Virus record (IMG/VR): IMGVR_UViG_3300025000_000008
Direction: 5' to 3' (one strand)
From: an uncultured virus (IMG/VR IMGVR_UViG_3300025000_000008)
Lineage: Duplodnaviria > Heunggongvirae > Uroviricota > Caudoviricetes
Length of the DNA stretch: 64,000 bases
Shown here: one piece after another, positions 17,215-42,557 of the stretch
How positions within the stretch are numbered: the stretch's first letter is position 1
Layout: each line of letters begins with the position of its first letter
Translations under genes and position numbers: made by a program
Notes under the pieces: model-generated
Told to the model about the DNA's origin: nothing
What the model saw: only the letters and a program-made list of their open reading frames with translations
Database searches by the model: none

Positions 17215-19457
17215 TGCATGCTCCCGCTAAATGAATTAGGTATGCTGGTTCGCCAGGGTTCTGGGCCAGGTTCAGGGGTAATGTACGGCTCCTCAGTTCC
17301 GACTTCAATCTCATCAAGCCACATCGTTTCGGTTATAGGGGCTCCGTCGCCGATCCATGGTGATAAAACAAATTGACTCCACATTTTGGTAGCATCTTGT
17401 CCTGTCCGATATTGCACATCCAGGTGATTCAGAACAAGTTCGCCATCAATCCATTCCCTCATAACCCCATCCCTTTGACCTACTCCGTCATCGATAGTAT
17501 TCATTTTTAAATATACCTCAACGCGACGCCAATCATTTGTCAATATTGGGATATTTGAACGCCAGGAGTTTGCAGAATAATATGGATTATCAGGATAGCA
17601 AATTCCAGTCGCCCCAGCAGGAGCCGGCTGATTGCAATATGTTACGCTCCTATTCTCCGTAGTTGCCGATAAATCGAGGGGAAGTGAACCGGAGGTTGTA
17701 TTCACCCGCTGTTGATCCTGAATAGCTATAACCGGATAAGTGGTATATGGGGCTCTAAGATCGGTATTATATTCGATATATGTGTTCAGAAAATTATTCG
17801 CCAAAGGCGTATAATCAACATCAATATTAGAGGGGATCGTGATCATATGTGGATGATAAGTCTGTTGACTTCCTCTCCACCCGGTCTGAAATTTTACATA
17901 GAATGAGACATATAAACTATCGGTTTCGGGGAAGAGATGTCGCATACTTCCGCCATTAACTGGCTGTGCTTCCCCCTGAGTCCAAGTCCATTGTAAACAA
18001 TTACCAGAGTAACCGCCGGAAACTATTGTTCCGTGATTAGTATTGTCATACCAGTCTCTATCAGCAAATTGATTATTATCAAAACTCTCAATGAAATAAG
18101 TTTCCCCTGGCTCAGAAGTCAGAGTATAGTTTGCTACGATGCTATCATATCCCCAATTTTGAGCGGCATCATAACAACCGACATAAACAGTACTTCCATC
18201 AGAAGGGAAGGAATTAACAAATCCTGACCATGCCGTAGTTCCGGTTAAAGCAACCCCAGAAGTTGCATCTGGCTGGGCGTTAATCCTGGCTTTGCAACCT
18301 ACTACTCCGGTTGCATCCTGCGCAGTCCCTGATAAAAACTGCGGGGTTGTGGTAAAATTCAATGGGTCGTCACCACTTATTACCACTACGGGAGAAACCG
18401 TATCTCCTGACCCACCCGACATGGTATAAACCGCGCTTACTTCTTGTAGATAGTTCTTGACCCGGAGTCGATAAGCGCCGACCGATAAGGTAGGTAATTC
18501 GGCGGTTACCGTAATAGATGTTTCCGATAAAGAGGTAGGGGGTTGCCATTTCCAAGTCAACCCGCCGTCGCCACTTATTTCAATGGTAGATGATGGATAA
18601 ATCCTACCTGTATGGCCGAATGCCAGATTATCCAACCATTGATTAATATCAGCAACTACCGAGGTCGAAGCGAAGTTAATAATGCCGAATTGAGGATAAG
18701 CATTATCTGGCATAGCCACGCCAGGAGATACATTAACTAATCGTATGCCATCGACATAAAGTTGATATGTTCCAGGGGATAGCCATATCCCTTCGATACA
18801 ATACCACCGATTATTCTGCAGGTTCAGTGAAGGGCTTGGGCCGCTGATCGAACCATATTTGGTCGTCAATGCAGATGGTAATTGACCCGGCATTGCCCCT
18901 TCAAGATCCAAGTACCACATAGCCCCGCTTCCGGCCGGCTGGGTAACCGTCATTTTTGTATAATTGTCCGGGTAGTTTCCGTTATTTGTTCGGTATCTGG
19001 TATAATATCGGAAATAAAAATTTCCAGAAGTCGACCCTGGATAAACTTGCACTGCTGATCCGCCATCATTATTCTCACCAGGATTCGTCCCGCCCCGGAC
19101 TCGACAATTCATTGCCATGTTGCCGGCAAGTTTAACGGTAGATTCAAACTTGCAATCCATTGCAATAGATCCATCTGGTTCCCCTGCTGGGGCCGAATTC
19201 GGACCAAGATGATAGCCGTCGGTTTCTGGCCATGTCTGCAGGGCGGTACCACTCGATACCGCCGATTCAAAACCATACATCGCTGAGATGCTCTGAAATT
19301 TTGAATCCCAGAGAGTATTATTCTCGTTGATCATATTGGCCCCGGAGATGGTCAAAGTCTGACCATTGGTTACCGTCCCGGCGACATATGTTACGGTTGG
19401 TGTTGCGGCATTAGCCTCGACAGAAAACAGGAGAATTATCGCAAGGAGAAATATCAT
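17211..19457 (-). CDS. Signal-peptide protein with two jelly-roll (ConA/polysaccharide-lyase-like) domains and Ig-like linkers
   Basis: MIFLLAIILLFSVEANA|AT; YFRYY...RWYCIE...LYVDG; LYVSFYVKF...WRRVEVYLKMNT...DGVMREWIDG...WLDEI. Confidence 0.75.
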   Translation of the reverse strand: MIFLLAIILLFSVEANAATPTVTYVAGTVTNGQTLTISGANMINENNTLWDSKFQSISAMYGFESAVSSGTALQTWPETDGYHLGPNSAPAGEPDGSIAMDCKFESTVKLAGNMAMNCRVRGGTNPGENNDGGSAVQVYPGSTSGNFYFRYYTRYRTNNGNYPDNYTKMTVTQPAGSGAMWYLDLEGAMPGQLPSALTTKYGSISGPSPSLNLQNNRWYCIEGIWLSPGTYQLYVDGIRLVNVSPGVAMPDNAYPQFGIINFASTSVVADINQWLDNLAFGHTGRIYPSSTIEISGDGGLTWKWQPPTSLSETSITVTAELPTLSVGAYRLRVKNYLQEVSAVYTMSGGSGDTVSPVVVISGDDPLNFTTTPQFLSGTAQDATGVVGCKARINAQPDATSGVALTGTTAWSGFVNSFPSDGSTVYVGCYDAAQNWGYDSIVANYTLTSEPGETYFIESFDNNQFADRDWYDNTNHGTIVSGGYSGNCLQWTWTQGEAQPVNGGSMRHLFPETDSLYVSFYVKFQTGWRGSQQTYHPHMITIPSNIDVDYTPLANNFLNTYIEYNTDLRAPYTTYPVIAIQDQQRVNTTSGSLPLDLSATTENRSVTYCNQPAPAGATGICYPDNPYYSANSWRSNIPILTNDWRRVEVYLKMNTIDDGVGQRDGVMREWIDGELVLNHLDVQYRTGQDATKMWSQFVLSPWIGDGAPITETMWLDEIEVGTEEPYITPEPGPEPWRTSIPNSFSGSMQ

Positions 19458-20941
19458 TACAGTGCCTTAAATGTCATGAATATTGAAAGATAAGAATCCT
19501 CTGAATCAATCGTTGCGACAGTTCCCCCAGGGAAAGTCCCAGTCGCAGAAACAACCTTGTCAAATAAACTTGATTGAACGGCTTGTTCAGTTCGGCGAGT
19601 AAAACCTTGCTGCGCAGTGAAGGTATGTGTAGCATCCCAAGGGAGAACAAAAAAGACCAATAATTCAGCATCCACCGCTGTGGTTTCAGTATCAACCGCT
19701 GTCAAGTTCGTTGACGGCCCACTCAAATAGAGGCAATCAGCATCATTACAGGTTGATTTATCAAGGGCGGATGAAGTGGCGATTCCTGAGTAAGCTGCTG
19801 CCGCAAAATTTCTATATACTGATCCTGCCGCAAAAGTCGCTGTGCAGGTCCCGGTATAGGCAGAAGCATTCAGTTTATACCAACCCTCAAATGCGTAGCC
19901 GGCTGCAGATCCATCGGCAAGAATGGCTTTGCCTAGTGTAAGGGTATTTGATCCGCAAGTTACTCCAGTAATATCTGCGCCGCCTTCAGCATAACCACCA
20001 ACCGATGCAACGATAGCATTTCCAGATGCAACCACAAGATTAGTCGCGGTGACAATAGTTGATGCCTCCGTATCCGCAACGGCAACAGCAACGGACTCAA
20101 ACTCAGGACCGCTCGGAGCAGAATCAGCAGTATATGTTCCTTCAAATTTTGTAGTTCCGCCAGCTTCCCGGACATTGAGTGTATGATCGGTTGAATTGTA
20201 CCAGACGTCATTTGTATCTGGACCGACCGGATCTGAGGTCACAAAATCAATGCCGGTTCCAGATCCGCCGCCGGGTGACCAGAACTCGATCGAACCTCCT
20301 GGCCCTTTCCCGTAACATGTGCCGATAGCTGCAGCTCCCGCCCCTGCTGCTATGACAAGGTCAGCGTCCCATGGCTGTATCAATGTATTGATGTCGGAAG
20401 CGAGCAGAAAATAATCATCCCAGTCAGTACCGTCGGCCCAATATAATCTGCCGCCGTATCCTGAAAATCGCCCAAGAGTTGGAGTTGCGGTTATTGCAAC
20501 ACCATTATAGAAATCTCCATAATGAGTGCCATCAGCGCCCGTTCCGATAACCGATGGGGACTCTATGGTCCCGCCAATCGTCAGCTTATTCGTGACTGGA
20601 TCATAAACCAGCCCCGCATCACCGACGAACTCTCCCCCTATATATACCTGGACTTGCCCTTCTGATCCGCCTGGGATTCCCGTACCGCCTTCAGGCAGAG
20701 GAAAAAGCAAACTTTCAAATGCAGATTGTGTCGCAATCTTATTCAATACATAGGTTGCAATATTGTCTGAGCTGGCATATTTCGTTACCCAAGATGCAGC
20801 GGAATCTTCGAGTAAAAAGATATCATTCGCAACAATCGTTGTTTTTTGGCTTTTGTCAGCATGGAGTCTGAATGATGATCCAGCTCCATAAGAATTTCCA
20901 GCTAGCGCCAAAATAAGAAAGAATGGAAGTAGTCTTTTCAT
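19457..20941 (-). CDS. Signal-peptide protein with tail-fibre-like motifs
   Basis: MKRLLPFFLILALAGNSYG|A; PGGSEGQVQ...FVGDAGLVYD, QPWDADL, TSDP...DVWYNST. Confidence 0.7.
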   Translation of the reverse strand: MKRLLPFFLILALAGNSYGAGSSFRLHADKSQKTTIVANDIFLLEDSAASWVTKYASSDNIATYVLNKIATQSAFESLLFPLPEGGTGIPGGSEGQVQVYIGGEFVGDAGLVYDPVTNKLTIGGTIESPSVIGTGADGTHYGDFYNGVAITATPTLGRFSGYGGRLYWADGTDWDDYFLLASDINTLIQPWDADLVIAAGAGAAAIGTCYGKGPGGSIEFWSPGGGSGTGIDFVTSDPVGPDTNDVWYNSTDHTLNVREAGGTTKFEGTYTADSAPSGPEFESVAVAVADTEASTIVTATNLVVASGNAIVASVGGYAEGGADITGVTCGSNTLTLGKAILADGSAAGYAFEGWYKLNASAYTGTCTATFAAGSVYRNFAAAAYSGIATSSALDKSTCNDADCLYLSGPSTNLTAVDTETTAVDAELLVFFVLPWDATHTFTAQQGFTRRTEQAVQSSLFDKVVSATGTFPGGTVATIDSEDSYLSIFMTFKAL

Positions 20942-21237: not shown

Positions 21238-21239
21238 TA

Positions 21240-22034: not shown

Positions 22035-22822
22035 CAGATAACCTCCTCGAACTCAAAATTTATAATCGAATGCGTACTATGATCATGAATCCCATCGGGC
22101 ATAGTTTCCATAGATCCATAAATTACCCAGTTATTGTTTTCGTTGTCTGATAAATTTATCATCATGGGGGCAGATCCTCTCTGATATGCTATATCCCTCA
22201 TGAGTAAATAAAAGTCATCGCGGTTGCATCTTATCGTTCCGCCAAATGCCCGTAGCCGCCCTCTATCTGCTCCGCGCCATTTTGCGCCGTTAGAAAGCTG
22301 CCTTTTTATTTGGAGGTCGATGGGTCTTTCTCTTATTGGGTATTGTAAGCCAGGAATTTCAAATGCTCTGCCGCAGACAAGTTTTCCTGCTGATAATTGA
22401 TATGGATTTGTATTTGACTTTCTCAGTTCAATTGTTACTTTTACTGGGGCCTCAAATTGAGGGAAATCAACCCATAGTTGCCCCATAGTATCACCGGTGT
22501 GCTTGATAAATATTGTAGTTGTAGATAGATCAAGCACTGATGGTACCTGCCAGTCAATGTTTTGCCAAATAATGTTCTGCCAAATAATGCCGCTTGGATT
22601 TTCAATTGTGACTGTGGCCGACTCGGCAACTATACCGACCAGTCCAAAGCCCCCGGTTAAACCCCTGGTGAAAACTTCGAGACTAGCATATGTAACTCCA
22701 GAAGTAGCAGCCTTCCATCCTTTCTTGATCGATTCATTGAGGAGATTTTCTGGTCCAAATCCGGATTGTGAACTGGATGCTGTTATACTGGTGATTGCAT
22801 CATCAAAAATAATTTTCATCAT
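22034..22822 (-). CDS. Distal tail / tail-tip protein
   Basis: Position; ITASS...PENL...W; ends FEFEEVI. Confidence 0.6.
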   Translation of the reverse strand: MMKIIFDDAITSITASSSQSGFGPENLLNESIKKGWKAATSGVTYASLEVFTRGLTGGFGLVGIVAESATVTIENPSGIIWQNIIWQNIDWQVPSVLDLSTTTIFIKHTGDTMGQLWVDFPQFEAPVKVTIELRKSNTNPYQLSAGKLVCGRAFEIPGLQYPIRERPIDLQIKRQLSNGAKWRGADRGRLRAFGGTIRCNRDDFYLLMRDIAYQRGSAPMMINLSDNENNNWVIYGSMETMPDGIHDHSTHSIINFEFEEVI

Positions 22823-24345
22823 GCGGCTGAAATGGCCCCCTCGCCAGTAACAATACACTGTTCTTGATCCCAGTCATAAATGATTTCAGCCACCCGCCCC
22901 CAAACATTCGAGGCCACCGGCATGCTTTCGTCAAGTAGTTCTATTCTCTGGCCAAACTTAGGAACTCCAGAGAGTGGCTTTGATAACTGGATTTGCATTC
23001 TCTCCATGATATTTTTGATATTTGTCAATGCCGGCTTAATAAGAGCGCTCGTTGTTTGGCAAACCGGGGAAATATCAATTGTTTCACCGTAAGAATGAGA
23101 TCCAGCAACAATTACCTCCCACTCTGGATTAGTCAATGCAAATGTTCGCTCTTCCCCAACTTCCCAATCTGCTTCGGTTTCAAACTCAGTTATCGTTCTC
23201 CAGGTGCTTGTCTCAAGATCATATCCTTGCCACTTCCAGGTTGTGATCATTCGATCAGCATTTACCCCTGGAGCCCGAAGAACGAGTTCGACTGGGATTC
23301 GAGTCCCCCCATAGGAAAGTTGTATATAAAGACTATTTGACGGACCTGCTGTGGAAACCCACAATGATGTATTGCTGTTATCAATAAGATTTCCGGCAGA
23401 ACTATTCCCAGATGATGCCGTGACCATAGCTGAACCAGAAATATCAGCCCCATCTTTTTTTGTACGAAGTTGAATTTCCGCAATAGCGCAAACTGTCGCC
23501 CCCTGATTGCCGGTACATACAATACGAAAATCCCTAATTTGAGCCTGATATTTTGCGGTAATTCTTTTAATTGGATTTGGAGCTGGATATGCCGAAGGGA
23601 AAATATCAAACTCAGTATATTCAAGTACCGGTCCATTATCTCTCAAGCAATCAATGAGATACATTGTTCCATCTTCTGGCACAGCTCTATGGCCAAAAAA
23701 CTTCGCCATATCATTCAAATTGTCAATCAATAAGCGCTCTCCTTCTGCTTTGTAATTGACAACAGGAGAAACTGCGCGAGCATAAGTATAGTTGAAAGCC
23801 AGCCCAAGAGTTACGCAAGCAGCCGCAAACTCTTCCTGTAAAGTACCGGTATACTCCGCATCTGTTACCTTCGTCTTAAACTGAGGGCCATAAATATCAT
23901 ATATTACAGCGTCTCTTGATGGTTCTCTCAAGTGTGCGGTTCCTTTTACAATCAACTCAATAGTGGAAGGATTTTGAATGATCCCAAGAGACTCACCATC
24001 GTCTATAAGGAAATCGCCATTTTCATCCGTTAAGAAATCGCCATTCTCATCTGTTAGCTTACTCCCAGGAAAAGAAACTACAGAAGAAGTCCCTGGCGCA
24101 CCAATAGAAATTTTAATTGGACAACTTATTGGTGGAGGCCAATTTCCTGGAAGAAGAAACGGGGTTGGAAGAAGGTCAAGCTGACCATAAGATGCTTCAG
24201 CTATTCCGCCATAGACTTCTCTCGTTGCAATTCTAAGCTGACCAAGTGAAGCAATGTAACCATCATAAAAGCCCTCGGGTAGATCATGATGGTCGTTGCT
24301 CAACTTATGCCAGGCGTTGTTTATTTTCATTTCAACGAGAAGCAT
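22819..24345 (-). CDS. Tail-tip/hub protein with an F5/8-type-C-like insert and LTDENGDF repeat
   Basis: Directly after tape measure; IAEIQL...TASS...AGNLID...W...WKWQG...W. Confidence 0.6.
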   Translation of the reverse strand: MLLVEMKINNAWHKLSNDHHDLPEGFYDGYIASLGQLRIATREVYGGIAEASYGQLDLLPTPFLLPGNWPPPISCPIKISIGAPGTSSVVSFPGSKLTDENGDFLTDENGDFLIDDGESLGIIQNPSTIELIVKGTAHLREPSRDAVIYDIYGPQFKTKVTDAEYTGTLQEEFAAACVTLGLAFNYTYARAVSPVVNYKAEGERLLIDNLNDMAKFFGHRAVPEDGTMYLIDCLRDNGPVLEYTEFDIFPSAYPAPNPIKRITAKYQAQIRDFRIVCTGNQGATVCAIAEIQLRTKKDGADISGSAMVTASSGNSSAGNLIDNSNTSLWVSTAGPSNSLYIQLSYGGTRIPVELVLRAPGVNADRMITTWKWQGYDLETSTWRTITEFETEADWEVGEERTFALTNPEWEVIVAGSHSYGETIDISPVCQTTSALIKPALTNIKNIMERMQIQLSKPLSGVPKFGQRIELLDESMPVASNVWGRVAEIIYDWDQEQCIVTGEGAISAA

Positions 24346-27300
24346 GAACCAACCTCTTACTTCCTTGATTGCGGATATTCTTCTGAGTGAAATGAGCGTC
24401 ATTGTATGGAAGTGTTGCCCTGAACACTTCTTTCCCATCAATCTGAACTACTGTATCCCCAGACCTTCCATTACTCAATATTGCTGACAACATCTGTTCC
24501 ATTACATCAAGTCTCTTCTCCTGCTTAGAAAAGAAATCTGGACCACCAGGGATAGGCAAAAGGGCTTCTGTTCCGCCTTCTCCAATATTGTGATTACCAA
24601 ACCAAGTGGATCTTTGAGTAACGAAACCTTTAGCATGAGCAAATGTTTGGCCGGTATCAGGGCCAACGACATACCCGGCGCCGAATGATTTTGCATCGGC
24701 AGAAATATCGCCAATTGATGCCCATGCTCCTGAAATCTGATTCGCTGCCTGTTGAGAGATTGACCCCATGTCCTGAATAGTGGAGGCCATGATCGATGTC
24801 GAATTAGCTGCATTCAAGGCGGCTGCGCTCAATCCTTCGCCTTCGACGGATAAGTTGCCTGCTGCATCTGCCGTACCATTCAGCGTGTCAGACAGCCAAT
24901 TCATCGCATCTCGCTCGACATAGGCGATTTCCGCTGCCTTGCCCATACCCTCAGCTGATTGACCAAGAGAATTTGTAAATTCATCTGCGGCAATAATCGC
25001 TTCGCGTGCAGCCTCACCACCAACATGCATAACCATTTCCCATTGATGGCCAGCCTCGGCTGCTGCATCATATTGTAATGCCAGCGTTGAGGTTGCAGAT
25101 GTCGCAACGAGTAGTCCGGAATTTGCATCATATAGGGCTTGCTCATATTGACTAATGCCTGGAATTGTCTCAACGATGGTGTCTTTGATCGATCGCCAAC
25201 CTTCATAAAACTGACCGAGGTCACCGGGAGTGATTCCCATTTTGTCGATTTCGTTCTCCGCCTGTGGTCGCTGGGATTTATTGTACGCTCCCATCGCGAC
25301 CAAGACGGCTGCAGCTATTGGTACCGCGTATGCTGCTGCGCCTGCTGCCGATGCCCCATAACTACCGGCTGATGCCCCAGCGGTAGAACCAGCCTGAGAT
25401 GCTGTGGACGCCGCCTGAAAAGTGCTATAAGAGGTCGCTCCAGATCCGGCGGTATACGAACTTGTTGCATACCCAGCAGCGGCCTTGCCTGCAGCCGTAT
25501 ATCCCATTTTTGCGGCCGCCCACTTTGCCGCTTCGGTTGCCGCGCCTTTTTCTATCAACCCGAGGGTTACTGCGCCCTGATACGTTGATGCCGCCCCGAG
25601 CCCCATTTGTACAGCTCCGGCACCGGTATTGCCTTTCTTCATATTTTTATAACCGGAATACATGCCGTAGGCCCCTGCCCCTACGGCCACAGCACCCATG
25701 GCCTTACTAAAGTATCCAGCCACAGCCTCCCCGAACACTTCTGATACCCAACTTTTTGCAGCAGTGCCACCGAGCCCTGATATTATTCCTCCGCCAGAAC
25801 CAAGACCCCCATTATTCGTTACATAAACATTCATGGCCCCACTTGTATAAGTAGCACCACCAATTCCTGCAAACAGATCCCCAAAGACTCCGCCGAACAA
25901 TGAACTAGAACCATCAAAAAGGGAACTGAGTATTTTACTCGAAGCCTTATCTGCTAAGAAAGTGAGGAGATTGTCCTTCATTCTGGAAAGCAGATCCTTC
26001 CAATTGTTTCCTATCTCATCAAACTGGCCCTTCATTACATTGACAAGAGTACCAGATAGAGCGTAGTGAAGGTCACGAGCAACTTCGTGACCGAGTTGAC
26101 CAAGCGATTTCAATTCTTTCTCTGCATCTCTTACTCCCTGAACAAAACCGTTCCACATATTGGTTCCGGTTCTGGCCAGAGTTTCATCATCACGGATAGC
26201 CTGTTGTCTTGCTGCTTCGATCTTTTTGAGTTCAACATAATACTGCTTTGATTGGCCCCATAACTCTTTGGCCTTTTCTATCTGGGAATCATACGCTTTA
26301 TTTACACTTTTCAGTTCTTGTTCATATTCACTTAATTTAGCGTCAGAAAAACTCTCATTGAGTTCTTTAAGTTCTTTTTCAAAGTCAGTAAGTACTTTAG
26401 TTTCAAAAGCCTTCTTTAATTCTGGTTCAAGCTCCTTGGACTTGTTAATAAGGACTTGAACACCTTTGGCGAGGTTTACAACTTCAGGTTTGGTGCTGCC
26501 AGACAATTCTTTGCTTACTTCGGCTGCTGAATCTCTCCATTCGTCAAATCCCGACTCTATGTCCTTAATTCCTTTTTGAACCTCAGAAAGAGAAGTATCA
26601 TCCAAAGCGTCAAAAGAAGCCGAAAGCTCCTTAACAGAATCCTTGTATTGCGACATCCATTGAGAAGTTATCTTTGCGGCCGCTTCAGTCTTCGACCCTC
26701 CGAGTGATTCATAATATTTCTCCGCAGCTGCCTGACCAAGCCCTTGTGATTCGGCGATATCTTTTATATCCGCAGAATAATCAAGATTGAACTGAGCAAG
26801 TTCTTTGTCTAATCCATCGGGCATAAAGTCAATTTTCAGTTGACTCATCCTTTGGATTATGGCCAGCCTTTCTTTTTCTGCAGCAAGCAATTCTTTAGTA
26901 TCAACTAGGCCGGCGTCGTCATTTTTTAAATTTTCCCTTAATTTGGCAAAGCTGCCATCAAAGCGCATTGCCTCTCTTTCCGCATCTCTCCAAGGATCGC
27001 CAAAATTTTCCTTGATAGAAGCCCCAACCCTATCGTCAACAAGAAGAAGTTCACCGGTATTGAAATCCCTTTTGCCAATAACGACATCCCAAATATTTCC
27101 AATGCTTTCAGCAAACCCTTGATATGCCGAAACCCCCTGCTGAATACTCCCTAATTTTAAATCATCTAATGCGTTGTTAAGCGTTAATACCCCGGCAGCG
27201 GCAGTAGCCGCTTGTGGGCCAAACTTAGCAAGAATACCACCAACAATAGCAATCTGAAATATCCCTGGGGTATTAAATGCATCAGAAAGTTTTTGAACGC

Positions 27301-28132
27301 CTTCCGCAAAAGAAAGGGTATTCTTTAAAGCAACATCAAGACTGCTTCCCCATTCCCTGATTGTCTTCTCATCAAGGCTGTCGTTGAAATCTTTAATGCT
27401 CTTGGTAATTCTGTCAACAAGAGTCCCAAAAGCAGGCTGAAACAATCGGCCCATAAGAACTTGGGCATTGGAAACATGGCGATTTAATGAAGTCCACTTT
27501 TTCCCCGCCATTTCCATAGAAGCGGCATAGGTTCCTTGAATCTTGGCCCCTTCCTTAACTACTGCGGATACCCTTGCTTGAGTCTTCTCATATGTCGTAA
27601 GTTCTTTTGAAGTCTTCCCTAAAGTGGCTGCAGCCTCCTCATAGGCTTTCTCGAAATTTACCTGCAAACCGATGTTTCTGAGTATCTCTACTTCGCCGGC
27701 CTGAAGGCCATGAATCATTCTTTCAAAAGCTTCTGAGGAATCGATATTACCAATTACAGCCGCATCCTGAGCAATACGAGCAAGGTCGGTGGCCTTGGAA
27801 AGATCAATTTGAGCCTGAGCAAGTTTAACAAGTGTCTGCCGGGTAGAGGTCATTGAGATGCCGGTCTTCTGAACCTGCTTCTCATACGTGGCCATCTCAC
27901 GAGCTGAATACCCAGCATTCTTTCCGACATTATTCATGACCACGCCAAGAGTATCATACCTGGCAGTGGCCATAGTCACAGTCTTGATAGCGTTCGCGAC
28001 GGTAGCGACAGAAAGCATCCCGGCAAAATATCCAGCAGCCCGCTTGGCAAAAGAAGAGATGTCGGTTTCCGCCTTCTTCAGCCCGGTAGTGTCAGCTTCT
28101 ATTCTGGTATATAATGAGCCAAGATCGTTCAT
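24332..28132 (-). CDS. Tail tape measure protein (1266 aa)
   Basis: MNDLGSLYTRIEADT N-terminus; long Ala/Gly-rich helical body; C-terminal GEGGTEALLP, VQIDGKEV; follows the chaperones. Confidence 0.92.
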   Translation of the reverse strand: MNDLGSLYTRIEADTTGLKKAETDISSFAKRAAGYFAGMLSVATVANAIKTVTMATARYDTLGVVMNNVGKNAGYSAREMATYEKQVQKTGISMTSTRQTLVKLAQAQIDLSKATDLARIAQDAAVIGNIDSSEAFERMIHGLQAGEVEILRNIGLQVNFEKAYEEAAATLGKTSKELTTYEKTQARVSAVVKEGAKIQGTYAASMEMAGKKWTSLNRHVSNAQVLMGRLFQPAFGTLVDRITKSIKDFNDSLDEKTIREWGSSLDVALKNTLSFAEGVQKLSDAFNTPGIFQIAIVGGILAKFGPQAATAAAGVLTLNNALDDLKLGSIQQGVSAYQGFAESIGNIWDVVIGKRDFNTGELLLVDDRVGASIKENFGDPWRDAEREAMRFDGSFAKLRENLKNDDAGLVDTKELLAAEKERLAIIQRMSQLKIDFMPDGLDKELAQFNLDYSADIKDIAESQGLGQAAAEKYYESLGGSKTEAAAKITSQWMSQYKDSVKELSASFDALDDTSLSEVQKGIKDIESGFDEWRDSAAEVSKELSGSTKPEVVNLAKGVQVLINKSKELEPELKKAFETKVLTDFEKELKELNESFSDAKLSEYEQELKSVNKAYDSQIEKAKELWGQSKQYYVELKKIEAARQQAIRDDETLARTGTNMWNGFVQGVRDAEKELKSLGQLGHEVARDLHYALSGTLVNVMKGQFDEIGNNWKDLLSRMKDNLLTFLADKASSKILSSLFDGSSSLFGGVFGDLFAGIGGATYTSGAMNVYVTNNGGLGSGGGIISGLGGTAAKSWVSEVFGEAVAGYFSKAMGAVAVGAGAYGMYSGYKNMKKGNTGAGAVQMGLGAASTYQGAVTLGLIEKGAATEAAKWAAAKMGYTAAGKAAAGYATSSYTAGSGATSYSTFQAASTASQAGSTAGASAGSYGASAAGAAAYAVPIAAAVLVAMGAYNKSQRPQAENEIDKMGITPGDLGQFYEGWRSIKDTIVETIPGISQYEQALYDANSGLLVATSATSTLALQYDAAAEAGHQWEMVMHVGGEAAREAIIAADEFTNSLGQSAEGMGKAAEIAYVERDAMNWLSDTLNGTADAAGNLSVEGEGLSAAALNAANSTSIMASTIQDMGSISQQAANQISGAWASIGDISADAKSFGAGYVVGPDTGQTFAHAKGFVTQRSTWFGNHNIGEGGTEALLPIPGGPDFFSKQEKRLDVMEQMLSAILSNGRSGDTVVQIDGKEVFRATLPYNDAHFTQKNIRNQGSKRLVHASR

Positions 28133-31017: not shown

Positions 31018-31018
31018 T

Positions 31019-31690
31019 TTAAACCTTTGTATACAAATGCGGATCAATAAAAGCCCGGCAAAGTTTTTCTTGCCAGGTGAGACCAAAGGATTCAATCAGT
31101 TTTTGAGCGGGTTCGAAATTGCCGGCGATCAATTCTGACGGCCAGAATTCCGTAACATTCAATCCTGCGGTTTTCATTTCGGCAAAACGCCGCTCATGAA
31201 CATCAACCCAAGACTGCCAGCCAGCGGCATCTCTATAGGCCCGCATGAATCTTGTTTTTTGACAACTTGCTACAATCCCGGCATGTTCCCGTTTGACTAT
31301 AACCCACTTTGCCTCCGGGAATGCAAGATGCCACAAATACCAGAGGTGGCAGGACTTTGGGCATTTATAAAACCATTCTCCATCTCGATACCCTTGATGT
31401 TGGATAACGAGTTGAACCCGACCCCGAAAAGCTTTGGCTTCATTGGCAGAGACTTCAAATACCTGCCGATTATTTGGGAGGGGTTTCTGTGCCGATGGGT
31501 CGCAACCAATCTTCTTTAAATGGGGGCGGACTATATTTAAACGGATCTCGATATTTTCGAAAACCCCCTTCTGGCAAAAGGCATTGGCCCCGTACATATC
31601 CCCACCAAAAGCCCCGCAGATGTTAAAAATACCGGCGGTCATGGAGGTTCCGCTTCTGGCGCAGCCAACAATCAAAATGGGATCTTTCAT
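31019..31690 (-). CDS. Sulfotransferase
   Basis: PAPS-binding loop ILIVGCARSGTS; G.FEN; YKCP; FPEAKWVIVKR. Confidence 0.85.
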   Translation of the reverse strand: MKDPILIVGCARSGTSMTAGIFNICGAFGGDMYGANAFCQKGVFENIEIRLNIVRPHLKKIGCDPSAQKPLPNNRQVFEVSANEAKAFRGRVQLVIQHQGYRDGEWFYKCPKSCHLWYLWHLAFPEAKWVIVKREHAGIVASCQKTRFMRAYRDAAGWQSWVDVHERRFAEMKTAGLNVTEFWPSELIAGNFEPAQKLIESFGLTWQEKLCRAFIDPHLYTKV

Positions 31691-32322
31691 TTGTACTCCT
31701 CGTTGACTTTATTCCATAACTCCGGAACCTCAAACGGTCGTGGGTGACCATGGAACACAAGCACTTTACAATCTGCCGGAATCCCCTCCTGGCATTGGCG
31801 TTTCCATGAATAAATACCGGGAAAGGCTTTCTGCAAAATACGGGGTTGAATATTTCTTTCTTTTAATTTTGACAGGGTATAATCTTCTTCCCCGCGCAAT
31901 CGTTTTGATATTTTTTTGTAATCGAATTCTTTATATAGCCAGGTCCAGTGGTGATTATAAACCATGATCCCGGAAATTGTTTTGATCGGTTTCCGCCAGG
32001 AGTGAATCATCCAAAAATCTTCGTGACCACACCTCTCTGCAATTTTAAAAAGAGGATCAATATTCCCAATAATCATTGTATCGACCCCAACTACAATAGT
32101 CGGACCGACATTTCTAAAGACTTCCGGAACCGACCACCAGCCTGGCCAATTCTCCAGAAGGGGGATGCTTATGACCCCTGGCATTTCATCCTGGCAATCG
32201 GTATAACAAACAAAATCATAATCTATTGTCGTATGTTTCTTAACCTGAGCAGCCAGAAGAGTTACATGTTCTGGTTTATAATCTCCGCCAAGTTTCAGGA
32301 CGCAGGCAAAAGTCGGTTTCAT
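31687..32322 (-). CDS. Glycosyltransferase (GT-A-like)
   Basis: CVLKLGGDY.PEHV, FVCYTD, WPGWWS, GVDT, SGIM, FHG.PRP. Confidence 0.8.
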   Translation of the reverse strand: MKPTFACVLKLGGDYKPEHVTLLAAQVKKHTTIDYDFVCYTDCQDEMPGVISIPLLENWPGWWSVPEVFRNVGPTIVVGVDTMIIGNIDPLFKIAERCGHEDFWMIHSWRKPIKTISGIMVYNHHWTWLYKEFDYKKISKRLRGEEDYTLSKLKERNIQPRILQKAFPGIYSWKRQCQEGIPADCKVLVFHGHPRPFEVPELWNKVNEEYK

Positions 32323-32966
32323 TTATTCGCCAGCCTCCAAAGTTTCCTGTCGTTCCAGGGTTTGTGTTTTCCGTAAAAAATCATGACCCGGGGATCTCGG
32401 GCCTTACCCCTGAGATAATGGTCTCTGTAACTATATACTCCCAGAACCTTATCCTGAATCGTCCCGATTGTTACCCCGCGATTTAATAAGGACTGGATCT
32501 GGTAATTTTCATCGCCTCGGTATTCAGCTGAAGCTTTTTCAAAATCAAAGTTTTTATACAACCAGCTCCAATCGCCATTCCAAATCTGCATTCCATTGAT
32601 TACCTGGCCAAGATGCCAGAAGGAAGCCAGAAGAAAAAACTCATTGGGGCTGACGTCGCAAGCAAACTCCAGAATGTGATCAATATTCCCCAGAAATAAG
32701 GTGTCAAGGCCGACGATAATTGAAGGGCCTTGGTGTTTCCAAAGTTCAACGCAGGACCACCAGCCGGGATAATCTTTTTCAAGCCGAATAACAGTTATGG
32801 AATCAAGATGATCAAGTGAATCAGGATCATCGGTATAACAAACAAATTCGCAATCAATAGTTGTATTTTTCAGGACTTGACTATACAAAGCGGCAATATG
32901 CTCGGCTTTATAAACCCCGCCGGTTCGATAACAACAAACTATTGAAGGGATTTGATTCATAACCAT
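32319..32966 (-). CDS. Glycosyltransferase (paralogue of 31687-32322)
   Basis: GGVY..EHI, FVCYTD, YPGWWS, GLDT, GDENY, FYG..KPW. Confidence 0.8.
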   Translation of the reverse strand: MVMNQIPSIVCCYRTGGVYKAEHIAALYSQVLKNTTIDCEFVCYTDDPDSLDHLDSITVIRLEKDYPGWWSCVELWKHQGPSIIVGLDTLFLGNIDHILEFACDVSPNEFFLLASFWHLGQVINGMQIWNGDWSWLYKNFDFEKASAEYRGDENYQIQSLLNRGVTIGTIQDKVLGVYSYRDHYLRGKARDPRVMIFYGKHKPWNDRKLWRLANK

Positions 32967-33448
32967 TCACTCTCCGGAACCCGACCAACCATCGTTTGCT
33001 TACCGCCGACCATCCCCCACTTCTCGCCGGCGGGGATATCCTTACGGACAAATGTACCGGCATAAATAAAGGAGTTAGAACCGATCCTCACCCCTGGGCA
33101 GATAATAGACCCGGCTCCGATCCTTACTCCATTACCAATAATGGGGCCTTGGATATTCGGAATTGTCCGCCCCTGATTGGCAATATTCTTTTCGTTGGTC
33201 ATAATCACTCCAGGGCCGAAGAAAACATTATTGCCGATCTTGGCTTCGCCGGTGATATGGCACTGGCTCTGAATCGTCACGTTGTTACCGATAGTTGTAT
33301 CCCGCTCAACCACGACGCCATGACCAATCACGGTTCCGGCTCCGATCTTGACGTTATCCCGAATGACGCAGAAATGGTAAATCTTTGCCGTCGGATCAAT
33401 CTGGACGCCTTTGTCGATGATTACATGCTCACTGATATTTCCCTGCAT
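32957..33448 (-). CDS. Hexapeptide-repeat (left-handed beta-helix) acyltransferase
   Basis: IGxxxx hexapeptide repeats; FGPGVIMTN; WbpD-like layout. Confidence 0.88.
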   Translation of the reverse strand: MQGNISEHVIIDKGVQIDPTAKIYHFCVIRDNVKIGAGTVIGHGVVVERDTTIGNNVTIQSQCHITGEAKIGNNVFFGPGVIMTNEKNIANQGRTIPNIQGPIIGNGVRIGAGSIICPGVRIGSNSFIYAGTFVRKDIPAGEKWGMVGGKQTMVGRVPESEWL

Positions 33449-34074
33449 ATTTCCTCGAATGGTTTATAAGGAATGATTGTAAGCGCACTGTCTGGCGTAC
33501 AGTTTATAATTTCAAGGCCAATCCGCGCTGCATCTTTGACGATATATGGCCAACCTTTCATAAAGCGGGGATAAGGGTCGGTCAACTTGCCCGGCTTCTG
33601 GAATCTTTTCTCATACTCATTATGCCAATGAGTATTGTCTTTTACATCGGCTGGATTCTTCATATCAAACCCAAGAAGAATAACCCGCTTGGCACCAAGC
33701 CAATAGGCCAAACTTATTGCTGAGGCCCCGGAGTTCGAGTTCCAGGCGACATGTGTTCGTTTGACATATTCAATCCCGTATTGCTTGGATCGATTTACGT
33801 ATTTGATATTGGGGAATCGATTCTGCTCAGTCGCTGCGGAACAGGTGGCGATTATTCCGCCGTATTCCCGTAGTTTCTTAGCATTGGTATAACCCCATTC
33901 CTTATCCCCGTACCAGCAGATATCGACCCAAGGACCGAGCGAGAAGGCGTGATTTACGCCGATTACCCGCTGGGTATGAATAGGGGTCAAATCCTGCTGC
34001 AGAAGCGAAGGCCCACCGCCGATGATAAATACGGTGGAGCCTGGCCATAACTCGGGGATAGTCCAGAGTGGCAT
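33421..34074 (-). CDS. Maf/DUF115/GT42-like transferase
   Basis: VFIIGGGPSL, VIGVN, NSG..AI.LAY.LGAKRVILLGFDM, HWH, IINCTP.SAL. Confidence 0.75.
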   Translation of the reverse strand: MPLWTIPELWPGSTVFIIGGGPSLLQQDLTPIHTQRVIGVNHAFSLGPWVDICWYGDKEWGYTNAKKLREYGGIIATCSAATEQNRFPNIKYVNRSKQYGIEYVKRTHVAWNSNSGASAISLAYWLGAKRVILLGFDMKNPADVKDNTHWHNEYEKRFQKPGKLTDPYPRFMKGWPYIVKDAARIGLEIINCTPDSALTIIPYKPFEEICREISVSM

Positions 34075-34076
34075 GA

Positions 34077-34622: not shown

Positions 34623-34634
34623 ATCTGATTGGTT

Positions 34635-34670: not shown

Positions 34671-34698
34671 GATATGTTCTTGCATTTAATCGATCAGC

Positions 34699-35754: not shown

Positions 35755-35803
35755 TTCTTTCTCCTATTCAAAGTTTGACCGATAAAAATCGAATCGAATA
35801 TTA

Positions 35804-36289: not shown

Positions 36290-36349
36290 TTTATTGCTCC
36301 TTTCAAAAGGGATTTTTGTTTAAATCGGGCCGTAGTCAGACCGAGTCGT

Positions 36350-37828: not shown

Positions 37829-37843
37829 TGGATTTTTCTCCTC

Positions 37844-38818: not shown

Positions 38819-38868
38819 AAGCCTATCAAATAAATTTAGTATAATTTTTGACTGATAGTAATTTCTTA

Positions 38869-40629
38869 TCAATCACGTATCCGGCCGTTGCCTGGAATAC
38901 TGCGGAGTGCACCTGATGTGCGGAGGTTGCCATAGCGTTGTGGTCCGAAATATCCTTCCCTGATCCAGTCATTTACTGGTCCTGCCATAATTTCCTGGTC
39001 CCAGGAAAATCTGTCCTGTGCTCTAGCCATATTAATAAAATCAGTAATCGTAGCAGATTGCCCTATACTGTCCATGTATGTCTCTATCGACCTGGTGACG
39101 TCGAAAAACCCGGTAGGACCGTGAACAGAGGTGTCTCCAGTCGTAGCCTGCCACGTCTCAAAACTTACACCAACGCCAGATAACTGAAATAGGGAATTTT
39201 CGGCACGATTACTGTAATATTTATTCCAGCTGAACTCAATCCCGGCTGGCGACCTATCAGACTGTATCAGATATCCGGCGTTGTTTTCTGTATATAAAAT
39301 ATTGTCTGCAAATTGGGTATTATCTGTAACGCTGGTTTCTTTAATTTCTAATCCGTTAGAATATACTACGCCATAAACAATGTTATTCAAAATATTTACA
39401 TCTCTACTCACGCCGTTGAGCGTAATAAAAGAGGCGTCGGTGATAATTGGGTCTGAGTTTTTCAACATTAAATTTCCTGTTATTTCCCCACCATCCCAAT
39501 CAAACACGTCTATTCCCCACGCGATATCCTGCCCCGTCGAGTCGGACCCGCCGAGTTCGGTTATCACGTTATTTTTCAGCACAAAATTTACAAACCGTAA
39601 ATCATCAAAAACATTACCCCCTATAGAGAGTCCGACCTTTCCGTACACATATAAATTGTTTTCGACTGTTACATCATGCGAGGATAACCCCTCGTTGTTC
39701 TCGGAAAATTTGTGATGGATGGATGATGGTCGCGACGATATGTTTCCACTAAAAACTGAATCGTACATACTGGCGGTGTATAGATTATGATTGTATACCG
39801 TGGCTGTGCCGGGGGTCCCAGGAGCGGCTGTGTACCAGCCGTTGTGATCAAAAACATTTTCCTCAATTTCCGCAGAAATGTTATATAAATACAACCCTTG
39901 AGCGTGTTGGCCATCCCTGTAGTTATCGAGAAATACTGACCTCCTAACGGTCACACCGGTCAGGATTCCTCCTGTATCAGCCTGAATGGTGTTGTTGGAA
40001 AAAAATCTAAACCTGCACCCCTCAATCAATATTCCGCCACCTGTTGAAGCACCTCCTACAAAAATACTTACCCCGTTGCTATCATTATCCTCATTCACAT
40101 ACGATGGGGAGTCTGGATCACGTGCGGGGGCATAGAAAGACAACCCGAAAACAGCCCAGAACTGAGTGTTGCTACAACATTTTTGTATTGCTGTATGCCC
40201 ACTTGAGGCTCCGGTTTCGATAACTGGAGATAGTCCAGATGAGCCGTATGCCCCCAGGAGAAAAGGCTCAGTTAAACCGCGCCCGTTGCGAATTGAAGAA
40301 CCAATATCCTGCACAAAGGTTTCTCCGCGCTTGAATAAAATCCAGTCGGGGAAATTCGCTCGGGTTTTTGCGAACGCTACTGCGTATGTCTCGCATGGAA
40401 CAATGGGGCCAACCGGGTCAAAAGGGTCAGGGCCTATAACCTCATCGTCATCATCATAGGCGACGCATGTGGTATTATCGCCATCACTGGCAATATATAT
40501 TATCTTACTATCATCAGAGGGGGTGAAAACTGTCCATCCATCTGCATCCAGCGGGAGACCCGTCCCTTGGGCCCCAGATGAAAATATTGAAAATATTAAA
40601 AGAAGTAATAATATTAACAACCATCTCAT
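38869..40629 (-). CDS. Signal-peptide right-handed beta-helix protein (pectate-lyase/depolymerase-like)
   Basis: MRWLLILLLLLIFSIFSSGAQG; ILFKRGETF; repeated I..N.F/V.NN strands; HNGW, NHNLY. Confidence 0.8.
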   Translation of the reverse strand: MRWLLILLLLLIFSIFSSGAQGTGLPLDADGWTVFTPSDDSKIIYIASDGDNTTCVAYDDDDEVIGPDPFDPVGPIVPCETYAVAFAKTRANFPDWILFKRGETFVQDIGSSIRNGRGLTEPFLLGAYGSSGLSPVIETGASSGHTAIQKCCSNTQFWAVFGLSFYAPARDPDSPSYVNEDNDSNGVSIFVGGASTGGGILIEGCRFRFFSNNTIQADTGGILTGVTVRRSVFLDNYRDGQHAQGLYLYNISAEIEENVFDHNGWYTAAPGTPGTATVYNHNLYTASMYDSVFSGNISSRPSSIHHKFSENNEGLSSHDVTVENNLYVYGKVGLSIGGNVFDDLRFVNFVLKNNVITELGGSDSTGQDIAWGIDVFDWDGGEITGNLMLKNSDPIITDASFITLNGVSRDVNILNNIVYGVVYSNGLEIKETSVTDNTQFADNILYTENNAGYLIQSDRSPAGIEFSWNKYYSNRAENSLFQLSGVGVSFETWQATTGDTSVHGPTGFFDVTRSIETYMDSIGQSATITDFINMARAQDRFSWDQEIMAGPVNDWIREGYFGPQRYGNLRTSGALRSIPGNGRIRD

Positions 40630-41192
40630 GGGGCAACCTCAATTAGAATGTTATCCACGTAGATTATTCCGCCAGCCGCGTTGTAATCATTCTGGAAATC
40701 AATAGAATCATTGGAACTGTCTGATGTAAACTGCCCTGATATAGTGGCCCATGAGCCACATGTTGGTTTGCTGCGGTACACCTGTTGAAGCGTGAACGAC
40801 ACTCTAAGCCCCGTGCTTACACCCCCAGAACATGGTAAATAGCAATCAAATGAGTAGTTGTGGAGTGTGCTGGGGGCAAAGTTTGGAGGAGCTACGCGTG
40901 TAAACGCCCTGACCGTTGTTTCGGCATCAGCAACAAGCTTCAGCGAGCCTGTGGCTGAGAGAACGGTATCTCTAGCGTATGATTCCCACGCGTAAGGATT
41001 GGTTCCGTTATTCCATAATGCAGTTTGGTCAGTTCGAAAATCCTCACAGAAAAACGCTCCTGCGTGTGTGTCACAAAAATCACCTGCAGGAGCACTCGCC
41101 GTAACCCCAGCAACAAACCCAGGAGGGAATGCCCACGCCCGAGACGAGATAAAACAGAGCAGTATAGAGAGTGCAATGATAAATTTTCTCAT
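40626..41192 (-). CDS. Signal-peptide protein with a CBM/jelly-roll-like domain
   Basis: MRKFIIALSILLCFISSRAWA|FPPG; FCEDF; W.TISG.FT; IYVDNI. Confidence 0.7.
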   Translation of the reverse strand: MRKFIIALSILLCFISSRAWAFPPGFVAGVTASAPAGDFCDTHAGAFFCEDFRTDQTALWNNGTNPYAWESYARDTVLSATGSLKLVADAETTVRAFTRVAPPNFAPSTLHNYSFDCYLPCSGGVSTGLRVSFTLQQVYRSKPTCGSWATISGQFTSDSSNDSIDFQNDYNAAGGIIYVDNILIEVAP

Positions 41193-41193
41193 A

Positions 41194-42087
41194 TCAGTTC
41201 GCCGTCCCTCCATCAACACTCGCCGCTGTCTCAGAATAGACCGACCATGTATCATCAGCAGTACACATCAGCGTGACCTTGGTCCCCGCCGTTGCCGCCA
41301 TATCCAACTTATTGTTGGCTGTCAATGCCGTTCCTGCAAACAGGTTAAAGTGATCGCCGGAAGCTGGCACAACCTCAATCTTCTCAGCATCCCTCGCCCA
41401 CAGCATGACAAATGCGCCTACGCCTGCTGTCTCGCAATCCCACATAGTCACCTCGTCGGCTGTCGTCATCTGCACTATTGAGGCATTGTGGTCGGCAAAG
41501 GTCAGTGTCTGCGCTGCCGTGTAGGAGTTGATCAGCATCTTGCCCTGCACGGCACCGGATGTTTCTACGTTCTCCGTGTCAATGAGCGGCTGATAGCCTT
41601 CTTCAATCTGCTCATACGTAGGAGCAATTTTTTGTTTGTCGGCTGTCGGGGTGGTATCGCTGATAATCGGCCTGAGCGGAGTAGCTGTGCCTGTCCCGGA
41701 CCCTGCACCAGATGCGGTGAACTCTACCCCGATTGTATTTGCAGATGCCCCGATTGCGGTAAAGTCTGTGGTGCCTACCGAGGCAATCACATATGTGACC
41801 CCTGTTTCAAACGCTCCTGCGGTCTGCGTTGCGCCTGAGATGGTGAGGTCAGCGTAGCTGGCGGCGTTGAAGGCTATGTTTTCTTTCTTCGCAAAAACAG
41901 TCTCTAGCCATGTTTTAATGGTATTCAGCACTGCCCAATTATTTCCAGTGCCATCTGGATTTTCGAGGAAAACCTTTTCAGTGCCTGAAATGCTGGTGTC
42001 TTCATCGTCGGTTGTTTCCCAGCTCGCACCCATTGCTACATGAGCAGATAAAAGGATGGATAGCGCTACTACAAAAATTCTCTTCAT
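41194..42087 (-). CDS. Signal-peptide fibre-like protein
   Basis: MKRIFVVALSILLSAHVAMG|A; AGAFETGVTYVIASVGTTDFTAIGA virion-type motif; C-terminal beta domain. Confidence 0.7.
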   Translation of the reverse strand: MKRIFVVALSILLSAHVAMGASWETTDDEDTSISGTEKVFLENPDGTGNNWAVLNTIKTWLETVFAKKENIAFNAASYADLTISGATQTAGAFETGVTYVIASVGTTDFTAIGASANTIGVEFTASGAGSGTGTATPLRPIISDTTPTADKQKIAPTYEQIEEGYQPLIDTENVETSGAVQGKMLINSYTAAQTLTFADHNASIVQMTTADEVTMWDCETAGVGAFVMLWARDAEKIEVVPASGDHFNLFAGTALTANNKLDMAATAGTKVTLMCTADDTWSVYSETAASVDGGTAN

Positions 42088-42557
42088 GGGTTTACCTCTA
42101 TTGGTGATCCATCTGTTCGTAAAATGTTTGTTCCGTCAACTCGCTGCCAGTAGGTCAATGTCGGTGTGTACCGCCCTAAATAATTTTGGAGCTGGTTCGC
42201 TTTGGCTGCCATACTACCAGTGTAAATAACAAGCCCACCTCTCGTCGGGTGGAATCCAACCCAGACGTGCGTTTCATTGAACAGCGCATACCACTCAGCA
42301 CCTGACCGAACTATTGGCACACCAGCACTAAACAGCAGTCCGCCGAGGTCAGTATCTGCCTGCGTGGTAACGGCATCAACCGGGAATCCCCACGTTGCAT
42401 TAGGCAAATCTTCAATAGTGCCGGTTGTCAGGGTTATGCTTGATTCGCCGATACTATCAATCAAATCATTTTTGATAAAAGCCGCAAAAACCAGTCCGTC
42501 TTGGGGCAATCGAAGGCTATTCCTTCTGCTGATAGTTAAACCCAGCGACAAATCCAT
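42084..42557 (-). CDS. Putative minor head / fibre-anchor protein
   Basis: MDLSLGLTI N-terminus; ends WQRVDGTNILRTDGSPIEV. Confidence 0.55.
   Translation of the reverse strand: MDLSLGLTISRRNSLRLPQDGLVFAAFIKNDLIDSIGESSITLTTGTIEDLPNATWGFPVDAVTTQADTDLGGLLFSAGVPIVRSGAEWYALFNETHVWVGFHPTRGGLVIYTGSMAAKANQLQNYLGRYTPTLTYWQRVDGTNILRTDGSPIEVNP

Follow-up and report, generated by a model that had tools for sequence, protein, structure and literature searches.

In phage G7C (gp63.1/gp66) and in the CBA120 tailspikes, a modular N-terminal region docks on a dedicated site of another virion protein, and the receptor-binding proteins (RBPs) are exchangeable. The docking sites there are folded domains, and neither a tandem-repeat peptide nor an export signal is known to be involved. 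In this paper we analyse a window of 64,000 nucleotides (nt), the whole stretch of DNA taken from the uncultured tailed virus IMG/VR IMGVR_UViG_3300025000_000008 (Caudoviricetes). We describe in its late operon two short tandem-repeat peptides, one at the C-terminus of the small protein P4 and one in a loop of the protein P26, which may act as plugs for the N-terminal ends of two fibre-like proteins with export leaders, P5 and P30. A described system with a similar geometry is that of the lactococcal siphophage p2, in which the Dit 'arm and hand' holds the RBP trimer (PMC7472080). According to that report, a single-chain extension of a tail-tip protein lies inside the trimeric N-terminal ('shoulder') domain of the RBP and a three-fold fibre is fixed to the tail tip, as we propose for this locus. 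In p2 the extension is a folded loop from the galectin domain of Dit, whereas here the candidates are a loop in a gp27-like hub and the free C-terminus of a small separate protein. Unlike the Dit extension as described there, the peptides in our window have three tandem units, are hypervariable and are swapped together with the fibre start, and many of the partner fibres have export signals. PDB entry 2wzp (p2) is among the fold matches of P26, but these matches are to hubs (Tal ORF16 in p2) and not to Dit, and P4 has no fold match; a Dit origin of the extension is thus not indicated.

The second comparison is with the MAT fibres of Bdellovibrio (Caulton et al. 2024, PMC10769870). As described, these are phage-tail-fibre-like trimers with a signal peptide, interchangeable tips and a surface-proximal N-terminal domain, a description that our proteins, if trimeric, would share. 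MAT fibres are bacterial and have one invariant, conserved N-domain of about 130 amino acids (aa), whose partner is reported as unknown. Here, by contrast, the fibres are encoded in a phage late operon, their N-modules, about 45 aa long, fall into many unrelated types, and the adjacent gene encodes a candidate partner peptide. We found no beta-rich domain of about 130 aa right after the signal peptide, and on that description we set these proteins apart from the MAT fibres. In a limited full-text search of the open-access literature, neither exported tail fibres nor a fibre plug made of tandem repeats was found described, which is not proof of absence.

Our preferred reading is that the fibres are mounted by a plug-and-socket device with pair-specific plugs, and we put its probability at roughly 0.55. 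The parts concerned are the following.

42084..42557, minus strand: P4, 157 aa, signal-less adaptor candidate, with a conserved body ending YLGRYTP and then a variable tail
42087..42152, minus strand: plug A, residues 136-157 of P4, units WQRVDGTN / ILRTDGSP / IEVNP
41194..42087, minus strand: P5, 297 aa, fibre-like, with a leader (residues 1-21), an N-module, a small middle domain and a C-terminal domain with two Cys
41878..42024, minus strand: socket A, residues 22-70 of P5 (SWETTDDEDTSISGTEKVFLENPDGTGNNWAVLNTIKTWL...), the predicted contact region
22819..24345, minus strand: P26, tail-tip hub by its predicted fold (gp27-like / Tal N-terminal fold; AlphaFold2 and Foldseek)
23986..24057, minus strand: plug B, residues 97-120 of P26, units LTDENGDF / LTDENGDF / LIDDGESL (LTDENGDFLTDENGDFLIDDG), in an insertion of about 40 aa
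19457..20941, minus strand: P30, 494 aa, leader-bearing and fibre-like, with four Cys conserved with the protein P0003
20732..20881, minus strand: socket B candidate, residues 21-70 of P30 (GSSFRLHADKSQKTTIVANDIFLLEDSAASWVTKYASSDNIATYVLNKI)

In the proposed device the plug would be a linear peptide with some three tandem units, most of them eight residues long and each with one hydrophobic anchor and an acidic or glycine turn, and the socket would be made by the first ~50 residues of three copies of the fibre protein. One plug chain would lie on the three-fold axis and give one unit to each protomer, and the 1:3 symmetry mismatch would thus be resolved. Plug A would make P4 a portable adaptor whose partner is the start of the next gene product, P5, while plug B would be a virion-borne plug, carried in a hub loop, for a P30-type fibre. 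Plug and socket would be specific to each other and exchanged between phages as one DNA block, so that fibres could be swapped with the rest of the particle untouched. The leader-bearing fibres, exported through Sec or as lipoproteins, would be trimeric, would lose their leaders and would fold in the periplasm (there are two Cys in P5 and four in P30), meeting the plug only when the envelope breaks down, at or after lysis. P4 would be attached to the virion, presumably by its body. Short linear peptides resolve the mismatch between the trimeric fibre and the penton base in adenovirus too, but there the peptides belong to the trimer and not to the base, and we mean this as an analogy only.

P4 starts at the ATG at 42557, which overlaps the stop of the preceding 90-aa gene; it therefore has 157 residues and no leader. 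Its C-terminus reads ...YWQRVDGTNILRTDGSPIEVNP. An earlier note on this DNA had described this peptide and the one in P26 as a tandem beta-hairpin-like motif. The repeats are real, but what was taken for a hairpin is in each case about three tandem units of some eight residues. The four peptides which that note quoted are all present in the translations of the genes it named, and it was right that P4 and P26 are signal-less, since neither has a leader of the P5/P30 kind.

We found 12 relatives of P4, of 118-183 aa, which make a family of 13 with P4 itself. Their bodies align up to YLGRY(T/Y)P, and beyond this point stand unrelated tails of 12-25 residues. The tail types include WQRVDGTN ILRTDGSP IEVNP, VNPDDSLM FNPDDSPA YNPA, LTEEQFNA LTEEQFNN LSI, FTFQDSSA YTFQNGTT YDFQ, EGFPYEFPFTLE and others. 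The tail of the window also occurs on bodies that are only 41% (P0012) and 35% (P0016) identical to that of P4, yet P0005, with a body 72% identical, has the NPDDS tail. From these alignments, tail and body appear to assort independently. Larger lectin-like proteins in the same gene position as P4 bear the same kind of tail (L004, L005, L016, L020). At least five identities at one offset were seen in 13 of 19 P4-like C-terminal tails, compared with 8.6% of the 314 C-termini of open reading frames (ORFs) from the same loci, a background that includes the cassette tails themselves. Many of the unrelated tails, indeed most, and three hub insertions have an architecture of 8+8+(3-5) residues. A metagenome scan with the P4 alignment gave, beyond the contigs already known, two short weak matches only, and scans of viral contigs with P4, P30 and P26 as single proteins found only fragments of the same phage. 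The comparison set includes such fragments (G001 is one of 8 kb) and a 43.7-kb relative, G002.

The neighbourhood of P4 shows how these tails are exchanged. The gene order of cassette 1, which is a small protein, an optional P4-like protein, a fibre, a P6-like protein and a large enzyme-like protein, is kept in L003-L006, L016-L018, L020/L021, L022, L023 and G002, and a gene of the 42557-42829 kind, of 90-133 aa, stands upstream of every related cassette. In all nine relatives examined the cassette adjoins lysis genes, an integrase or the terminase and not the head module. In L005 and L016 it runs directly into homologues of the genes at 15.8-17.0 kb of our window, and G002 shares the tail genes of the window but has different head genes. 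This comparison suggests a mobile cassette. From the gene order in relatives we reject the idea that cassette 1 is part of the head module, and a role of P4 as a head anchor is not supported.

The DNA of L005 matches that of L006 over a stretch that opens 71 nt ahead of the stop of two otherwise unrelated upstream proteins and reaches about 505 nt into the fibre gene. When the window is compared with L006, similarity is seen in the P4 body (73%) and in the middle of the fibre (82%) but not in the tail, leader and N-module that lie between these two. By this alignment, tail, leader and N-module have been replaced as one block between homologous flanks. Where a tail type is seen twice (L005/L006 and L022/L023) it goes with the same fibre N-module both times, and every other tail type pairs with another N-module. 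With at least nine unrelated tail types paired with different N-modules, a single docking code for head and tail, as once suggested for this locus, does not hold.

P5 itself is a mosaic. L005 and L006 have its first 163-251 residues in common with it. Its middle is found again in collagen-repeat tail fibres of 883-1,393 aa that follow a host-specificity-type protein of about 1,070 aa (L008, L010, L011), and is common to the long tail fibres of L008-L011. The C-terminal domain recurs in L003, L004 and L007 and is shared with 199 proteins, the homologues that a search returned. Among the best 45 of these the C-terminal domain is common, and after the leader stand many alternative N-modules, including the P30-type module and Mtd_N (PF18454), the latter in four leader-bearing proteins with the P5 C-terminal domain (P0020, P0033, P0036, P0047). 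P5 and P30 themselves have no Pfam match, and so none to a generic tail-fibre N-module such as Mtd_N.

The contact between plug A and P5 is predicted by a model of the complex. Three copies of P5 residues 22-110 were modelled with one P4, using shallow alignments of 6 and 13 rows. The runs scored 0.80, 0.79 and 0.80, compared with 0.00, 0.08 and 0.01 for three controls; in calibration, the mark set for this score was reached by 116 of 157 solved complexes and by 2 of 215 mismatched pairs. At least 90% of contacts agree between the runs, while the per-residue confidence (pLDDT) of the partner was 44, 84 and 50, and therefore the fold of P4 itself is uncertain. In the model (0.80, best control 0.08) a single P4 chain is inserted into the three-copy N-domain of P5. 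The P4 side of the interface is made of residues 137-141 (WQRVD), 145-149 (ILRTD) and 153-157 (IEVNP), each contacting one P5 copy, and the P5 side of S22, W23, T26, F40, E42, N43 and G46-N49, identical in the three copies. P5 residue 40 of copies 3, 2 and 1 touches P4 residues 137, 145 and 153, and therefore, in the model, one tail gives one unit to each protomer. The interface consists of exactly the P4 tail and the KVFLENPDGTGNN stretch quoted in the earlier note, which had proposed that a repeat peptide on a signal-less protein is the partner of a fibre start. That principle gains support for P4 and P5, although not the single code attached to it. We regard the model as supporting the binding of the P4 tail to a P5 N-module trimer; it is not a measurement.

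P26, the carrier of plug B, has the fold of a tail-tip hub. Its AlphaFold2 model, with 92 relatives aligned, has a pLDDT of 94.4 and a predicted TM-score (pTM) of 0.87. Foldseek matches it with probability 1.00 and E values from 8.8e-9 to 1e-4 to hub chains of PVC, Mu gp44, MuSo2, T4 gp27, p2 ORF16 and T5. Among these are 6j0m_A (8.8e-9), 3cdd_C (9.8e-9), 1wru (Mu gp44, 4.9e-7), 2wzp_R (p2, 8.3e-6) and 1k28_D (T4 gp27, 4.5e-5), with TM-scores by target of 0.34-0.60. Thus P26 is, by its modelled fold, a tail-tip hub and a virion protein. The position of its gene fits the usual place directly after the tape measure (24332-28132, phrog_3779; P26 starts at 24345), and the order is the same in G002. 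Sequence searches name the protein less clearly. P26 has no Pfam match, its sole PHROG match is weak (phrog_10304, E 5.6e-4, residues 315-435), and neither P26 nor P27 has a PDB sequence match. The family counts 319 relatives at E <= 0.001, mostly of about 320 aa. One of these matches E217_GP41 below the cut-off (E 0.0054), and Pfam and PHROG searches with P26 relatives and foreign plug-bearing proteins gave no informative name.

The insertion with plug B occurs in three of the 64 aligned members of the P26 family. All three have three period-8 units of different sequence, the other two being LVDEGGDS/PTDGTAI/LVDDGAAL in G002 and LADEVDAT/YVEDSGLE/YSDASISP in P0139. In the window the two 24-nt copies of the repeat are 91% identical, and we read the differences between them as synonymous. 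The inserted block has a pLDDT of 70-86 in the model, with a period-8 strand pattern that resembles the P4 tail. A different repeat is found in P27, the protein after the hub, where a 15-nt tandem repeat at window positions 22556-22589 encodes IIWQN IIWQN IDWQ.

For the partner of plug B we looked at co-occurrence. P30 has a sole relative among 5.8 billion clustered proteins (P0003, 55% identity), and a scan with the alignment of its module found only the phage itself and G002. A scan of all viral contigs for DNA encoding DENGDxxxDENGD gave 56 foreign loci and the fragment of the window's own phage; a few of these loci are plain acidic low-complexity runs. In four of the 56 loci (L050, L075, L087, L091) the repeat is an extreme C-terminal tail. 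A profile of the P30-type module, built from four sequences and run on the 1,064 ORFs of the 56 loci, had two matches (E 3e-12 and 1.1e-11; next best 0.15), and both are the genes immediately downstream of C-terminal DENGD tails, in L091 and L050. The fibre in L091 is leader-bearing and stands after a tape measure, a 485-aa protein and a 183-aa plug protein, and that in L050 has the P30-type module without a leader. The co-occurrence of motifs that the earlier note had named as a check is thus positive for this pair. On this co-occurrence the P30-type fibre start would be the most likely partner of plug B.

The P30-type module is also joined to a P5-type C-terminal domain (P0028, P0077, P0024). 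It begins at the predicted mature N-terminus or at the initiator Met (GTFKI.., SS|GTFRI.., YG|AGSSFRL...), which suggests that the leader is an add-on set exactly before the socket. The DENGD repeat was found in other settings too. About 30 viral contigs (L039, L041-L044, L054, L058, L061, L065, L070, L072, L074, L076, L077, L079, L082, L084, L086, L092 and others) encode a protein of about 180 aa with an internal ...VDENGDPxLDENGDQVVTLGVKS... repeat at residues ~71-83, usually followed by a small membrane-protein gene, and no P30-type module was found near this family. In L045, L055, L062, L073 and L078, proteins of 1,111-1,273 aa have an internal DENGDxxxDENGD about 223 residues before the C-terminus and are followed by a fibre-like gene starting MAQHDYxIANQSG.... 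This repeat may be another internal plug with a different partner.

The two fibre starts had been thought to be alike, which we did not find. The alignment of the P5 and P30 starts has a BLASTP E value of 77, Smith-Waterman scores against shuffled sequences gave p = 0.06-0.8 in ten pairings, and the P30-type module profile scores P5 above E = 1. At the sensitivity of these three methods we reject homology of the two starts.

The remaining exported genes of the two cassettes, and the small gene that opens cassette 1, are as follows.

42557..42829, minus strand: small protein, 90 aa, signal-less, first gene of cassette 1
40626..41192, minus strand: P6, leader-bearing, with a conserved mature start FPPGF(V/I)AG; gene 4 in most related cassettes
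38869..40629, minus strand: P7, 586 aa, leader-bearing, with a conserved C-terminal tail ...NLRTSGALRSIPGNGRIRD
17211..19457, minus strand: P31, 748 aa, leader-bearing, second exported gene of cassette 2

At the N-termini of P5, P6, P7, P30, P31 and the protein at 15796-16593 we read a basic residue, then a hydrophobic stretch and a cleavage site with small residues. These signal peptides were assigned by inspection, with the help of a crude rule that finds a leader in 37 of the best 45 P5 homologues. In P5 and P30 the leaders are of the form K/R-hydrophobic-AxA/G and are followed by the quoted modules. In P0003 a lipobox (LALASC) and a linker of about 40 residues replace the P30 leader, with the same module after them. 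Fibres with the same modules but no leader are found in L022, L025 and L050, and export therefore does not seem to be obligatory, judging from these sequences. P31 has a weak match to Polysacc_lyase_14 (E 0.0052) that does not reach the Pfam cut-off.

Three-unit tails also stand at the C-termini of the large, leader-bearing, enzyme-like proteins of the cassettes, where they are rich in Gly (for example GMGLNGAG SMPLSGAG TMGLQ and GKFSTGT GKRTTGT GKQVNN). This is seen in P7 (38869-40629), P31 (17211-19457), L004 7049-8917, L016 7594-9447, L022 5760-7631, L017 3339-5903 and L007 212-2800. P7-type proteins with different bodies have ...LRTSGxLxxxxGNGRxRD in common. The top ten tandem C-terminal tails among the 314 ORFs all belong to cassette proteins, five of them to the large enzyme-like class. 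The Gly-rich tails may be plugs in the exported compartment.

Several observations weigh against a plug-and-socket device. The complex was a three-copy job with 6- and 13-row alignments, unlike the calibration set, and such a model may place chains side by side whether or not they bind. The fold of the partner is uncertain, with a pLDDT below 50 in one run. P4 is without a recognisable fold. Its AlphaFold2 monomer is of moderate confidence (pLDDT 63.5, with a periodic strand pattern in the tail), no Foldseek row against the PDB reached E <= 0.001, an Atlas search gave sub-threshold rows only, and neither Pfam nor PHROG has a match. Because the cassette moves among phages with unrelated head genes, no virion site for P4 is evident. 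The joint inheritance of tail and N-module could be due to linkage alone, since the two are physically adjacent, and the Shine-Dalgarno GAGG of P5 sits in the last codons of the P4 tail. A P4-like gene is absent from L017, although its fibre N-module is common to L016 and L017, and from L003. On the side of plug B, 52 of the 56 DENGD repeats lie inside other proteins and have no P30-type module within 5 kb, the module follows only two of the four C-terminal DENGD tails, and three genes, P27-P29, separate P26 from P30. Finally, export would take the fibres away from the cytoplasm, where virions are built, and in G002 the homologue of P30, a lipoprotein, would stay on a membrane.

In the main rival reading the contact is real, but the exported cassette would act away from the particle, at or outside the host envelope. 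The exported proteins could, for instance, degrade or bind surface polysaccharide, exclude other phages or stick infected cells to new hosts, and P4 could join fibres into free complexes that are released at lysis. Such a role would suit a mobile cassette that adjoins lysis genes, an integrase or a terminase in relatives and that is present in phages with unrelated head genes. It would suit the lipoprotein homologue of P30 as well, and the three-unit tails of exported enzyme-like proteins, by which the exported compartment would have plugs as well. In Bdellovibrio, phage-like fibres with leaders serve on the surface of the bacterium itself (PMC10769870). We nevertheless think an envelope role rather unlikely: plug B is in a tail-tip hub, which is a virion protein, the middle of P5 is common to long tail fibres that follow host-specificity-type genes (L008-L011), and fibres with the same modules are leaderless in L022, L025 and L050.

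It is improbable, in our judgement, that the repeats arose by replication slippage in tolerant linkers and have no function, with tails and fibre starts travelling together by adjacency and through the ribosome-binding site, and with the predicted interface a false positive. The P26 repeat is indeed a 24-nt tandem duplication, the tails are short, acidic and of low complexity, a Shine-Dalgarno sequence lies within the codons of the P4 tail and the fold of the partner in the complex is uncertain. Against this, the same 8+8+(3-5) architecture recurs in most of the unrelated tails and in three hub insertions, and we read the differences between the copies in P26 as synonymous. The predicted interface matches the three units in register while all three controls score low, and DENGD tails and P30-type modules co-occur in unrelated contigs. 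Still less probable is that the P4-like proteins are private cytoplasmic chaperones or export pilots, which would hold the fibre start until Sec takes it over and would have no place in the final structure. P4 is leaderless, always encoded just before the fibre and without a virion-protein fold, and it has weak Foldseek matches, below significance, to type III secretion chaperones (TM 0.11-0.17, E ~1). However, Sec accepts single chains in the unfolded state, whereas the predicted socket is made of three mature N-termini that are already folded. P4 partners also occur with fibres that have no leader (L022, L025), and a plug of this kind is found inserted in a structural hub.

If the plug-and-socket device is real, it would amount to a portable mounting rule of a carrier peptide of ~22 residues and ~50 residues at the fibre start. 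It would account for the exchange of whole fibres between unrelated phages with the tail undisturbed, and for the presence of fibre-type proteins with secretion signals in late operons. A preformed trimer would dock onto a linear peptide with no need for co-folding, which would be possible after lysis, and tandem repeats with one unit per protomer would be an unusual solution to the 1:3 symmetry mismatch. The rule would help to predict fibre-carrier pairs in metagenomic phages, and the peptide could become a compact handle by which foreign receptor-binding proteins are mounted on phage particles in laboratory strains. As a swappable docking alphabet its logic would be comparable to that of cohesin-dockerin, where docking is made specific and swappable by a short module present in duplicate. 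Dockerins are calcium-binding helices of 22 residues that have no relation to the plugs in sequence or period, and this likeness too is an analogy only. A wider idea, which we put forward tentatively and hold to be doubtful, is that a group of uncultured tailed phages finish their particles outside the cytoplasm, by Sec export of fibres and enzyme-like proteins, periplasmic disulfide folding and docking on virions only at lysis, through orthogonal three-unit plugs (in hubs, small adaptors and exported enzymes) and trimeric N-terminal sockets.

The cassettes belong to a late operon of siphovirus type on the minus strand, at 14-46.6 kb of the window. It starts with the small and large terminase, the portal and a five-gene insert, followed by a Mu-F-like head protein, a protease/scaffold, a decoration protein, the major capsid protein and a five-gene sugar-modifying island. 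Then come connectors, the tail tube, chaperones with the usual G/T pair and the tape measure, and downstream of it P26, P27, P28, P29, the leader-bearing P30 and P31, and envelope/lysis-type genes. We found no close match at the DNA level to known phages, and a genome scan found no prophage relative. Shine-Dalgarno sites (GAGG, GGAG or AGGAGG) precede most genes, and because of this we rejected a Bacteroidota-type host, an organism without such sites.

Three further groups of genes were noted in the window. The five genes at 31019-34074, between the major capsid gene and the connector genes, encode a sialyltransferase-like/MptE-like protein, a hexapeptide acyltransferase, two glycosyltransferases (phrog_1962) and a sulfotransferase, and may serve glycan modification of the virion or of the host surface. 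Positions 16580-17032 encode a lipoprotein with an acidic tail and 15796-16593 a leader-bearing protein ending ...GTAHGGIYLHAPYGNKSKTVKMEW. This pair travels together beside holin-like genes, and is found also at L005 9651-10736, L016 9290-10641 and L022 1010-2366. On the plus strand, at 58722-62401, the starts of ORFs resemble, by reading of the sequence by eye, genes of the queuosine/7-deazaguanine pathway (QueD-, QueE- and QueC-like).

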